IMG/VR virus record: IMGVR_UViG_2531839449_000046
Direction: 5' to 3' (one strand)
Length of the DNA: 41,869 nt
Origin: a virus
Taxonomy: Duplodnaviria; Heunggongvirae; Uroviricota; Caudoviricetes
Shown here piece after piece: positions 27,001-30,000 of this stretch. Within the stretch, counting starts at the first letter, position 1, and each line of letters opens with the position of its first letter. The position numbers were made by a program.

Positions 27001-30000
27001 CGCCTTCGACCACATCAAAGGCGTAACCACTGCTCGTTTCACCACTCTGTACGGTTGCTCTGTACTTGTTCCTGAATATACGGGCATCGTTATTGCCGGG
27101 CAGTAATTTTGGTGGGGCTTCGGCCCCATTTTTATTGGGAGAAGACAATGGCACGAACAATGCTCTATAAGTCGGGCAACATGATCACCTGTGGTCAGTT
27201 TGCTGTCGATTACATCATTGTTGATGACGAAGAAGTTAAATCTCACCTGAAAAAAGGCTGGGTAAAAACCCCTGAAGAAACCGCAACGAAGCAAAAAGTG
27301 GCTAAGGCGGAAGAAGATGGCGAAAACGAAGGGTGATCTCGTTCTTAAGGCTTTACGAAAAGCTGGGCTGTATTCCAATGCCACGTTGACAGATGCTGAC
27401 CCTCAGGCAATTGAAGATGCCATTAATGACCTCGAAGACATGATGGCAGCATGGCAGGCTAAAGGTATCGAGCTTGGGTATCAGTTTGCTGATACAGAAA
27501 ACGGCATCATGCCGTTACCTGACGATGATTCAGGTATCCCTGCATGGGCAAATGATGGCGTCGCTTTGAAACTCGCTGTGCAAGTGTGCATGGATAACGT
27601 CATTCAGCCGTCAGACGCTCTCCTTACCGCTGCTGACAGTGCATATCAGACAATCTGTATCGCTTTAACCAAAATACCACCACTTGAGCGGCGAAATGAC
27701 ATGCCTCGCGGTAGTGGTAACAAAAGCGCGTTTACGTGGAATCGGTTTTACATCGAGAAAGATGATCCGAGTACGTGAGGTGAATAAATGCCGATTCAGC
27801 AACTTCCGCTTATGAAAGGTGTCGGCAAAGACTTTAGAAACGCCGACTATATCGACTATCTGCCAGTGAATATGTTGGCTACACCCAAAGAAATCCTGAA
27901 CAGCAGCGGATATCTTCGCTCATTCCCGGGCATTGCCAAACGTTCTGATGTGAACGGCGTATCGCGCGGAGTTGAGTACAACATGGCGCAGAGTGCTGTT
28001 TATCGCGTGTGTGGCGGCAAGCTGTACAAAGGAGAAAGTGAAGTCGGTGATGTTGCCGGAAGTGGTCGTGTATCAATGGCGCATGGTCGGACATCTCAGG
28101 CTGTAGGCGTTAATGGCCAACTGGTCGAGTATCGTTATGATGGCACGGTTAAAAGAGTCTCAAACTGGCCTACAGACAGCGGATTCACGCAGTATGAGTT
28201 AGGTTCTGTTCGTGACATTACGCGCTTACGCGGGCGTTATGCGTGGTCAAAAGACGGCACTGATTCATGGTTTATCACTGACCTTGAAGACGAATCGCAC
28301 CCTGACAGATACAGCGCACAATATCGCGCAGAATCGCAGCCTGACGGCATCATCGGCATCGGAACATGGCGAGACTTCATCGTCTGCTTTGGTTCATCGA
28401 CGATTGAATATTTTTCCTTGACTGGTGCAACCACTGTTGGTGCCGCTTTGTATGTCGCACAGCCATCGCTGATGGTGCAGAAAGGCATTGCCGGAACTTA
28501 CTGCAAAACGCCGTTTGCTGATTCGTATGCGTTCATCAGCAATCCGGCAACGGGTGCGCCGTCTGTATACATCATCGGCTCAGGTCAGGCATCACCAATC
28601 GCCAGCGCGAGCATTGAGAAAATCCTCCGCTCCTACACTGCTGATGAACTGGCTGATGGTGTGATGGAATCGCTGCGGTTTGATGCTCATGAGTTGCTGA
28701 TTATCCACCTTCCGCGCCATGTTCTCGTGTACGACGCATCTTCAAGCGCCAATGGTCCGCAATGGTGTGTGTTGAAAACTGGCCTGTATGACGATGTGTA
28801 CCGCGCTATCGACTTCATTTACGAAGGCAATCAGATAACGTGCGGCGATAAGCTGGAGTCCGTGACCGGGAAATTGCAATTCGATATATCTTCACAATAC
28901 GAAAAACAACAAGAGCATATTTTATATTCCCCTCTAATAAAGGCAGATAACGCTTTAATAAATGACCTTGAATTAGAAACATCGGGCGGCGTGTGTGATA
29001 GAATAGATAAAATATTTATATCAGCCACTACAGATGGAATTAGTTACGGTCGTGAGCAAATGGTCGTATTACAAAAACCATTTGTATATGACAATCGCGT
29101 TTTATGGCGAAAGGTTGGTCGAGTTAGACGCCTCATTGGATTTAAATTCAGGGTTATTGCAAAAGGTCCTGTCACATTATCAGGCCTTTCTATTCGTGTA
29201 ACATAAATCGAAACTCAAGGAGTAGATATGTTAAGTGAAAACGCAAAAGATATCGAAGGATATGAAGGACTGTACGCCATCACTAATGATGGTAGAGTTT
29301 ACTCGCATTCAAGAGTAAATTTGAGGGGACGTCTTATTAAGGGTAGGTGGCTGAAGCATAATCATAACGTAAATGGATATAAGTATGTGTGTTTATATAA
29401 GGATGGCGTAAAAAAGAACATACTAATACATAAGCTTGTTGCATCTCACTTTGTTGGTGGATTTGCTGAAGGGTTACAGGTAAATCATATAGATGGTGAT
29501 AAATATAATAATAACTATCTAAATCTTGAATGGGTTACTCCATCAGGAAATATCTCACACTCATATGGATTGGAGTCGAGAGGTAATGTAAAAGGAGAAA
29601 GGAATGGTAATTCTAAAATATCTAATGATGATGTCATAAAGATAAAAGAAATGGTTGCCAATGGATTTCCTCAGTGTGAAGTTGCTAAATTATTTGGAAT
29701 TCACAATTCAAAGGTTAGTAGAATTGTAAATGGCAAGGCATGGAGGCATGTTAATGGCTGATTCGAATCTCAATGTGCCGGTAATCATTCAGGCTACACG
29801 GCTCGACACATCAGTCCTTCCACGCAATATATTCAGCCAGTCTTACCTGCTGTATGTCATTAATCAGGGGGCTGATGTCGGCGCAATTGCCGGGAAGGCA
29901 AATCAGGCTGGTCAGGGCGCTTACGATGCTCAGGTGAAAAACGATGAACAGGATGTCGAACTGGCTGACCACGATGCAAGAATCACCGCAAACACAAAAG

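Follow-up and report, generated by a model that had tools for sequence, protein, structure and literature searches.

A probable homing endonuclease cassette that includes the 3′ end of the tail hub gene in P22-like phages

When T-even phages undergo intronless homing, repair of the recipient genome after cleavage has to extend into homologous sequence next to the endonuclease gene, and neighbouring markers are transferred as well (PMC2988022). Enzymes of the I-HmuI type also favour inheritance of flanking markers in the HMU phages (PMC2988022). Here we describe a locus in IMG/VR record IMGVR_UViG_2531839449_000046, a stretch of 41,869 nucleotides (nt) that we refer to in its entirety as the window, and whose virion module is that of a P22-like (Lederbergvirus, Sf6/HK620-type) Escherichia coli prophage. 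Between gene 10, which encodes the tail hub, and gene 26, which encodes the tail needle, the window contains an open reading frame (ORF) for an HNH endonuclease. The adjoining 3′ end of gene 10 (hereafter the tail, the remainder of the gene being the head) shares the unusual base composition of this ORF. Based on comparison with natural variants of the locus, we propose that the tail and the endonuclease gene form a cassette that is probably a free-standing homing endonuclease with a co-transferred flank, moving by intronless homing and active now or until recently.

I-HmuI of Bacillus phage SPO1 (PDB 1U3E), an intron-encoded HNH nicking homing endonuclease, shares with the protein studied here a NUMOD4-like N-terminus, an HNH core and a C-terminal helix-turn-helix (HTH) region. 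It lies inside a group I intron of the DNA polymerase gene, whereas the window gene stands free between two virion genes, with no intron detected. The T4 genes for SegF, SegG and MobE resemble the locus in their setting, as each is an endonuclease gene between essential genes that is present or absent in relatives and carries adjoining sequence with it (PMC2988022; PMC2790892). The T4 enzymes differ from the window protein in family or architecture (GIY-YIG for Seg; HNH with other DNA-binding parts for Mob) and act in virulent T-even phages that have their own recombination machinery. Their cleavage sites and co-conversion tracts were measured experimentally, whereas our picture of the window cassette is drawn from natural variation. 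Free-standing I-HmuI-like HNH proteins of the same structural family are described in lactococcal Skunavirus phages (Yu et al. 2025, PMC12724721); according to the abstract of that study, they vary in number and location, cluster by insertion site and have been shown to mediate marker exclusion in some cases. Skunavirus represents another phage group with another host, and the abstract mentions no structural-gene segment strictly linked to an endonuclease gene (PMC12724721). Terminase-associated HNH proteins of the HK97 gp74 type are encoded next to terminase and portal genes. The window gene, in contrast, has the NUMOD4-HNH-HTH architecture, lies at the gene 10/gene 26 boundary and is not adjacent to the terminase large subunit gene, which is annotated in RefSeq ~9 kb upstream.

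A preliminary description of the window, made from the sequence alone, had recognized a NUMOD4-HNH-HTH ORF between hub and needle genes, and database comparisons of its product of 177 amino acids (aa) bear this out. Pfam identifies NUMOD4 (49.5 bits, cut-off 23.4; E = 5e-13) and HNH_3 (39.3 bits, cut-off 24.8; E = 5e-10), and HTH_23 scores under its cut-off (18.6 bits, cut-off 24.6; E = 0.0016). A phmmer search against the PDB aligned residues 7-174 with residues 4-163 of I-HmuI (1U3E chain M; E = 8.4e-21), and this alignment spans the C-terminal region in which the Pfam HTH match is sub-threshold. The protein also matches phrog_59, ‘HNH endonuclease’ (E = 2e-49). Residues H87, N99 and N108 align with H75, N87 and N96 of I-HmuI, to which the I-HmuI structure paper reportedly ascribes catalytic roles. 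By sequence, the protein belongs among the I-HmuI-like NUMOD4-HNH-HTH homing endonucleases, and we predict that it is enzymatically active.

The GC content falls from ~0.51 to 0.32-0.42 between roughly 28850 and 29750 in sliding windows, confirming the drop that the preliminary description had proposed to check in this way. The tract 28880-29753 has a GC content of 0.351, compared with a median of 0.478 for segments of equal length across the window, and the only region of lower GC is an acyltransferase region near 39-41 kb. At third codon positions, the gene 10 head has a GC content (GC3) of 0.53, compared with 0.24 for the tail and 0.27 for the HNH gene. The genes 10 of HK620 and Sf6 are 90-100% identical in nt to the window gene in 90-nt windows up to ~28870. 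Past the breakpoint, their identity to the window falls to 51-62% and their GC content remains at 0.48-0.56. Across HK620, Sf6 and further insert-free relatives, the normal-GC tail is 54-62% identical to the low-GC tail in nt. Alignment of the hub C-terminus with these two phages, another check that had been suggested, places the breakpoint at 28880-28888, where the composition break and the homology break coincide. The low GC of the end of the hub gene was therefore correctly noticed and the drop is sharp, but the tract begins at 28880-28888 rather than at 28860, and covers ~105 rather than ~115 codons.

In HK620 and Sf6, the gene 10 stop codon overlaps the gene 26 start codon (TAATG) with nothing between them. 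Gene 10 abuts gene 26 in these phages and in 35 other loci, which makes the insert a presence/absence polymorphism at one site. Homology to the insert-free alleles starts again exactly at TAATGGCTGATTCG (29751 onward), the former overlap of the gene 10 stop and gene 26 start, and gene 26 is 94% identical in nt to that of HK620 from 29752 onward. Given this exact resumption and the altered gene 10 end, the insertion is precise on the right and joined to a replaced gene 10 end on the left. Within the tail, an 18-nt patch at 29168-29185 (CCTGTCACATTATCAGGC, encoding PVTLSG) is the same in the AT-rich sequence and in the insert-free consensus, in a surrounding segment that is ~55% identical.

The low-GC tail and the HNH gene occur together. 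Among 5,426 complete E. coli genomes, 915 contain the gene 10/26 region; 56 of these carry the low-GC tail and/or this HNH gene, and the two are linked in all 56. The whole cassette is present at 98-100% identity in 34 of the 56, whereas 15 combine the same tail (94-96% identity) with a different NUMOD4-HNH gene, which we term variant 2 (the window gene is variant 1), and four combine a tail of 84% identity with variant 3. Phage HZ41 has a tail that is 96% identical to the window tail in aa, followed by a variant 2 gene, and every other gene 10 product in 50,697 phage records is at most 68.5% identical to the low-GC tail in aa. In IMG/VR, all 28 loci with a tail of at least 86% aa identity (GC 0.35-0.40) have variant 1, 2 or 3, and all 24 loci with an ordinary tail (GC 0.43-0.50) have no insert. 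The HNH gene is found in 9/9 low-GC-tail loci from JGI metagenomes versus 0/11 ordinary-tail loci, and the low-GC tail is accompanied by HNH in both a Salmonella contig and an ENA contig recovered through a protein-database search. No close tail was detected in GTDB species representatives, in which the best match is one Citrobacter locus at 66%. HNH-free homologs with an AT-rich hub C-terminus, named beforehand as the observation that would speak against joint replacement, were absent from the E. coli genomes, phage records, IMG/VR, metagenomes, GTDB and protein-database contigs. The linkage, together with the loss of similarity to insert-free tails where the GC content of the window falls, indicates that the hub C-terminus and the endonuclease gene are one imported unit, consistent with the earlier suggestion that the hub C-terminus was replaced along with the endonuclease; the insert-free alleles have tails of normal GC.

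Candidate exceptions to the linkage were ruled out. In E. coli M160133, where no HNH gene appeared under the match, an insertion sequence (IS) element, IS1, separates gene 10 from a variant-2-type NUMOD4-HNH gene. In ETEC6333/6334, where the HNH body was found with no tail in the same piece, an IS3 is inserted at ~29279-29284 and the low-GC tail is present at 98.9% identity. IS elements are thus found repeatedly within the cassette, both between gene 10 and the HNH gene (IS1, in M160133 and one IMG/VR locus) and inside the HNH 5′ end (IS3, in ETEC6333/6334). A further candidate counter-example, IMGVR_UViG_2703718772_000030 (L041), matches the window without a mismatch over 26377-28953 (2.6 kb), a stretch that extends 66 nt into the AT-rich tract. 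Inside an 8-nt microhomology, GATAACGC (28946-28953), it changes to a tail of the HK620 type (96.8% identity), and it lacks an HNH gene. We rejected this locus as a counter-example, as it is a recombinant of a window-like HNH-positive genome with an HNH-negative genome, and its sequence records either the loss of a cassette or the formation of a hybrid phage. The position of its crossover limits the strictly linked part to 28954-29206 plus the HNH gene.

Ordinary tails differ little from one another, with 92-94% aa identity even between P22-like phages that are otherwise very different. The low-GC tail, in contrast, is 57-61% identical to them over the last 84 codons, and synonymous sites between the two types are saturated (Nei-Gojobori proportion of synonymous differences ~0.98). 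Deliberate synonymous recoding of the tail was considered and rejected, since identical codons at conserved residues number 13-21, compared with 14-15 expected from composition. Saturation and this composition-level codon matching indicate that the tail is an anciently diverged homolog and not a recently recoded copy. The ratio of nonsynonymous to synonymous substitution rates (dN/dS) among low-GC tails is 0.06-0.10, from which we conclude that the hub end they specify is functional. Phage HZ41, deposited as an isolate from waste water, is a plaque-forming carrier of the cassette; given its isolation as a phage, the chimeric hub is likely functional.

All the low-GC tails that we found are sharply joined to a head of normal GC. 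A gene 10 of low GC throughout, as expected of a donor lineage, was not found in the phage collection, GTDB representatives, IMG/VR or metagenomes. A search of 5.8 billion proteins for a donor or a closer HNH-free tail returned fragments only, including a 79% match on a noisy, frameshifted contig that also has HNH. We consider it very probable that the tail and the HNH gene have a common foreign origin. The median ratio of tail divergence to head divergence is 0.39 in HNH-positive pairs versus 0.80 in HNH-negative pairs, and at equal head divergence cassette tails are ~3x less diverged than ordinary tails. The lower ratio in HNH-positive pairs indicates that the cassette is younger than its flanks.

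Variation around the cassette is consistent with mobility. Informative sites in 39 HNH-positive loci reveal at least two or three different 5′ endpoints of the tract. From 28918 onward, all HNH-positive alleles are of the low-GC type, whereas 28888-28915 is low-GC or ordinary depending on the allele. Both states of this segment occur within variants 2 and 3, and the variant-1 loci scored are all low-GC there. The gene 10 heads that bear the cassette are 69-100% identical to that of the window. On the other side, one cassette is joined in other genomes to needle genes of differing type and length, and the right flank of the cassette thus recombines freely.

The three HNH variants share 46-56% aa identity, with the first ~30 and last 7 residues conserved, and are associated with nearly the same tail (the variant 3 tail being ~84-85% identical to the window tail in nt). 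Comparison of the window with HZ41 by blastn shows 94-96% nt identity up to 29311 and from 29741, with unalignable sequence between. The core of the endonuclease gene has therefore been replaced while its location stayed the same. Comparisons within each variant give dN/dS values of 0.035-0.07 at dS 0.12-0.49 (one pair is saturated), and dN/dS is 0.06-0.07 between the window gene and other variant-1 alleles. Values this low indicate that the enzyme is maintained by selection.

Related and unrelated endonuclease genes were also identified at gene 10 boundaries of other phages. Salmonella phage UPF_BP1 carries, between gene 4 and gene 10, a related NUMOD4-HNH gene (776-1580 of the locus) that is inserted ~30 codons downstream of the gene 10 start. 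Its first ~47 residues are as in variant 2, and the leader AAATCGAAACTnnAAGGAGTAGATATG is common to it and the window gene despite the different insertion sites. A rearranged gene 10 end is another shared feature, although the UPF_BP1 gene lies at the gene 10 5′ end with a duplication of ~93 nt instead of a clean replacement, and its C-terminal part differs from that of the window cassette. The first ~93 nt of gene 10 are present twice (776-868 and from 1449), with the second copy overlapping the HNH 3′ end in another frame. The annotated start of gene 10 in UPF_BP1 (1558) looks too far downstream. In Escherichia phage vB_EcoP-683R2 (683R2), an unrelated HNH_3+AP2 gene (2922-3416 of the locus) occupies the same gene 10/gene 26 junction next to a tail of ordinary GC. 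The last codons of this gene repeat the normal gene 10 end (AGGATTGAGTAATGG), and gene 10's own end is altered (AGGCTGGAGTAA). The inserts of UPF_BP1 and 683R2 indicate that gene 10 boundaries are recurrent sites for endonuclease genes.

Given these patterns, we propose the following scenario. The mobile unit would consist of the foreign AT-rich last ~100 codons of gene 10, the leader with its ribosome-binding site, and the I-HmuI-like endonuclease gene. When an HNH-positive genome meets an HNH-negative relative, through co-infection or infection of a lysogen, the enzyme would nick or cut the HNH-negative genome at or close to the junction between the gene 10 3′ end and gene 26. Using host RecA or the ERF recombinase of the phage, recombinational repair would then copy the endonuclease gene from the HNH-positive genome and extend back into the conserved gene 10 body, so that the tail is carried along each time. 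The prophage encodes an ERF-family recombinase that could serve in such repair. At ~55% nt identity, the tail has diverged too far for pairing with the recipient sequence, and transfer of the HNH gene would therefore need a crossover upstream of ~28888-28918. This requirement would explain both the complete linkage and the clustered yet non-identical 5′ endpoints. The divergent tail may also make its carrier resistant to cutting.

Natural variation in these sequences supports a one-block origin, linkage, an exact-junction polymorphism, variable endpoints, diverged backgrounds and purifying selection, all of which we regard as established at this level. Several observations nevertheless weigh against homing as their cause. 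The counterpart of I-HmuI D74, reportedly a metal ligand, is Asn (N86) in the alignment of all three HNH variants. The gene 26 side has no distinct co-converted tract, with insert-free homology resuming at the junction. The insert-free alleles that the preliminary description had envisaged as candidate cleavage targets do exist, but the 33 unique alleles contain no block of at least 11 nt at 95% conservation or more that would allow prediction of a target site. The cassette is present in ~6% of the E. coli genomes with the gene 10/26 region (56/915) and is thus not sweeping, and the counts given above come from collections that overlap and are not phylogenetically independent. All the linkage and spread data are also compatible with passive recombination of a mosaic module, the main alternative, which fits the linkage just as well as homing does. 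In that case, a single illegitimate entry from a lower-GC relative was followed only by homologous shuffling in the flanks, and the HNH protein, which does not drive its own spread, is kept for another role or is a passenger that has not yet decayed. P22-like genomes are highly mosaic and readily form hybrids with resident prophages (PMC10307801), and both the low frequency of the cassette and the L041 tract, broken by a plain crossover at a microhomology, are in keeping with this explanation. We nonetheless regard it as unlikely, because homing accounts better for the purifying selection, the core exchange and the young age of the cassette. Purifying selection is strong on all three HNH variants across substantial synonymous divergence, and homology to an enzyme with proven homing activity extends over the full length of the protein. 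Furthermore, the cassette is younger than its flanks and occurs in backgrounds up to 30% diverged, its HNH core has been swapped while site and tail were retained, and other endonuclease genes recur at gene 10 boundaries.

It is also conceivable, though improbable, that the AT-rich tail was a pre-existing allele of gene 10 into which the HNH gene homed later, becoming fixed within that allele class. Fixation of a homing gene in its target allele class would also yield complete linkage, and the tail associated with variant 3 (~85% nt identity) and the variant 3 gene appear to have co-diverged. This order of events is difficult to reconcile with the sharp boundary between each low-GC tail and a head of normal GC, and with the absence from all collections searched of a wholly low-GC gene 10 or an HNH-free low-GC tail. 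In addition, GC3 is alike in tail and HNH gene and unlike that of both flanks, and the tract has variable 5′ endpoints, a pattern predicted for conversion or recombination. The bare composition profile by itself would fit a low GC content that serves a function or is selected locally in gene 10, for example for translation coupling, and has nothing to do with the HNH gene. We give this explanation almost no credence: the insert-free tails, with a GC content of 0.43-0.50 and 92-94% aa identity among themselves, are only 57-61% identical to the low-GC tail in aa, with synonymous sites fully saturated, and their comparison refutes it.

Within the homing interpretation, we speculate that the cassette could act as a cleave-and-rescue element, in which the endonuclease attacks the conserved 3′ end of the essential hub gene in rival P22-like phages and prophages, and the AT-rich tail is the resistant rescue copy. 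We hold this possibility to be doubtful for now. If true, the three cores (variants 1-3) would have displaced one another at one site while the rescue segment was kept. Competition of homing enzymes for one locus has reportedly been proposed for I-HmuI and I-HmuII; here it would shape a structural component of the virion in phages of both Escherichia and Salmonella.

The features of the locus are listed in Table 1. The order of virion genes is gene 4, gene 10, HNH ORF, gene 26, gene 14, gene 7 and gene 20, and the segment 28500-30100 is 100% identical to prophages of E. coli O111 strains 11128 and SD134209. Gene 10 and gene 26 are complete, separate ORFs flanking the HNH ORF, and gene 10 has its own stop codon. 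As noted in the preliminary description, the HNH ORF overlaps the start of the needle gene; the overlap of HNH stop and gene 26 start is 8 nt (ATGGCTGA), with the gene 26 start at 29754 supported by alignment to HK620 and Sf6 and by RefSeq annotation. An ORF list instead begins gene 26 at an ATG at 29730, which is probably incorrect. Between 28400 and 30200 there is no Rfam match and no intron family at E ≤ 1, and thus no indication of a group I intron. We searched the cassette for a promoter, a terminator and other structured RNA and detected none. With no intron, promoter or terminator in the cassette, the HNH gene is presumably expressed late with the virion genes. The HNH gene has its own ribosome-binding site and GGAGG precedes gene 26, so the translational arrangement of the late operon appears to be preserved.

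Table 1. Features of the cassette locus, of other window regions and of IS-bearing relatives (window coordinates unless a locus is named)
Feature	Position	Strand	Basis or context
Gene 4	27317-27778		
Gene 10, tail hub / packaged-DNA stabilisation protein, whole ORF	27788-29206	+	PF11134, E = 9e-281
Gene 10, native part, GC ~0.51	27788-28887	+	PF11134; nt identity of 94-100% with HK620, Sf6 and L041 as far as the breakpoint
Imported tract, variable 5′ edge (low-GC in window and some lineages, ordinary in others)	28888-28917	+	Informative-site patterns
Replaced gene 10 3′ end, core: last ~96 codons and stop, GC ~0.36, GC3 0.24	28918-29206	+	Low-GC type in every HNH-positive allele
Cassette leader with Shine-Dalgarno AAGGAG (29217-29222) for the HNH ORF	29207-29227	+	Sequence reading
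Free-standing I-HmuI-like HNH gene, NUMOD4-HNH-HTH, 177 aa, variant 1	29228-29761	+	Pfam, PDB and PHROG matches
HNH gene, exchangeable core	29312-29740	+	Window versus HZ41 blastn; protein alignment of variants 1, 2 and 3
GGAGG in HNH 3′ end, 7 nt 5′ of gene 26 ATG; predicted replacement ribosome-binding site for the needle gene	29742-29746	+	
Right junction TAATGGCTGATTCG	29751-29764	+	Comparison with HK620, Sf6 and HZ41
Gene 26, tail needle, normal GC, outside the import	29754-30455	+	HK620 alignment; RefSeq coding-sequence coordinates
ERF-family recombinase	4023-4658	-	E = 1.7e-44
Other HNH gene, HNH_3+AP2, phrog_99	14446-15012	+	nin region, between ninF and ninG
IS-bearing cassette locus L007	2865-3562 (L007)		
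IS-bearing cassette locus L008	1181-2409 (L008)		
IS-bearing cassette locus L029	~2870-3635 (L029)		

Several other features of the window were recorded. The second HNH gene, at 14446-15012, is within a mild low-GC island (~0.40). The presence of two HNH insertions had been called notable. There are indeed two such genes, and they belong to different families, but the observation is less notable than it seemed, as several HNH genes in one phage genome are common. A 156-aa ORF with no Pfam match lies on the minus strand at 5250-5720, in a low-GC island (~0.38) next to the ERF recombinase. The lowest GC content of the window (minimum 0.32) is at 39161-40991, where RefSeq annotates a minus-strand acyltransferase family gene beside the tailspike gene; this is probably an O-antigen-modifying conversion gene. 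Relative to ~22700-27300 of the window, the prophage copy in O111:H- strain 11128 (NC_013364.1) has two IS1203 insertions that are absent from the window, as deduced from coordinate offsets. One is in the scaffolding gene, which is intact in the window (24941-25834), and the other lies between the coat gene and gene 4. By this comparison, the window stems from a close relative and not from that record.

Every element described here is known in principle, namely the I-HmuI-like enzyme, the free-standing homing gene and the co-transfer of a flank, and the cassette is a clean example of a known phenomenon and not a new kind of system. We found no description of this gene 10/gene 26 cassette in the literature searched, which did not cover the two Casjens reviews of P22-like virion gene clusters. 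The locus also illustrates pitfalls for annotation: a chimeric hub is accompanied by an extra ORF, the junction insert of 683R2 is deposited as ‘endolysin’, and gene 26 is labelled ‘hypothetical protein’. The tractability of P22, Sf6 and HK620, together with a carrier phage, HZ41, and insert-free alleles that are near-isogenic, makes homing, co-conversion and endonuclease competition directly testable. For P22-like phages, the natural-variation data, which are unusually clean, indicate that a segment of the tail hub, an essential protein of the virion, is exchangeable as the passenger of a selfish endonuclease gene. Exchange of the hub tail would thus be one concrete mechanism by which mosaic boundaries arise inside the structural genes of temperate phages.

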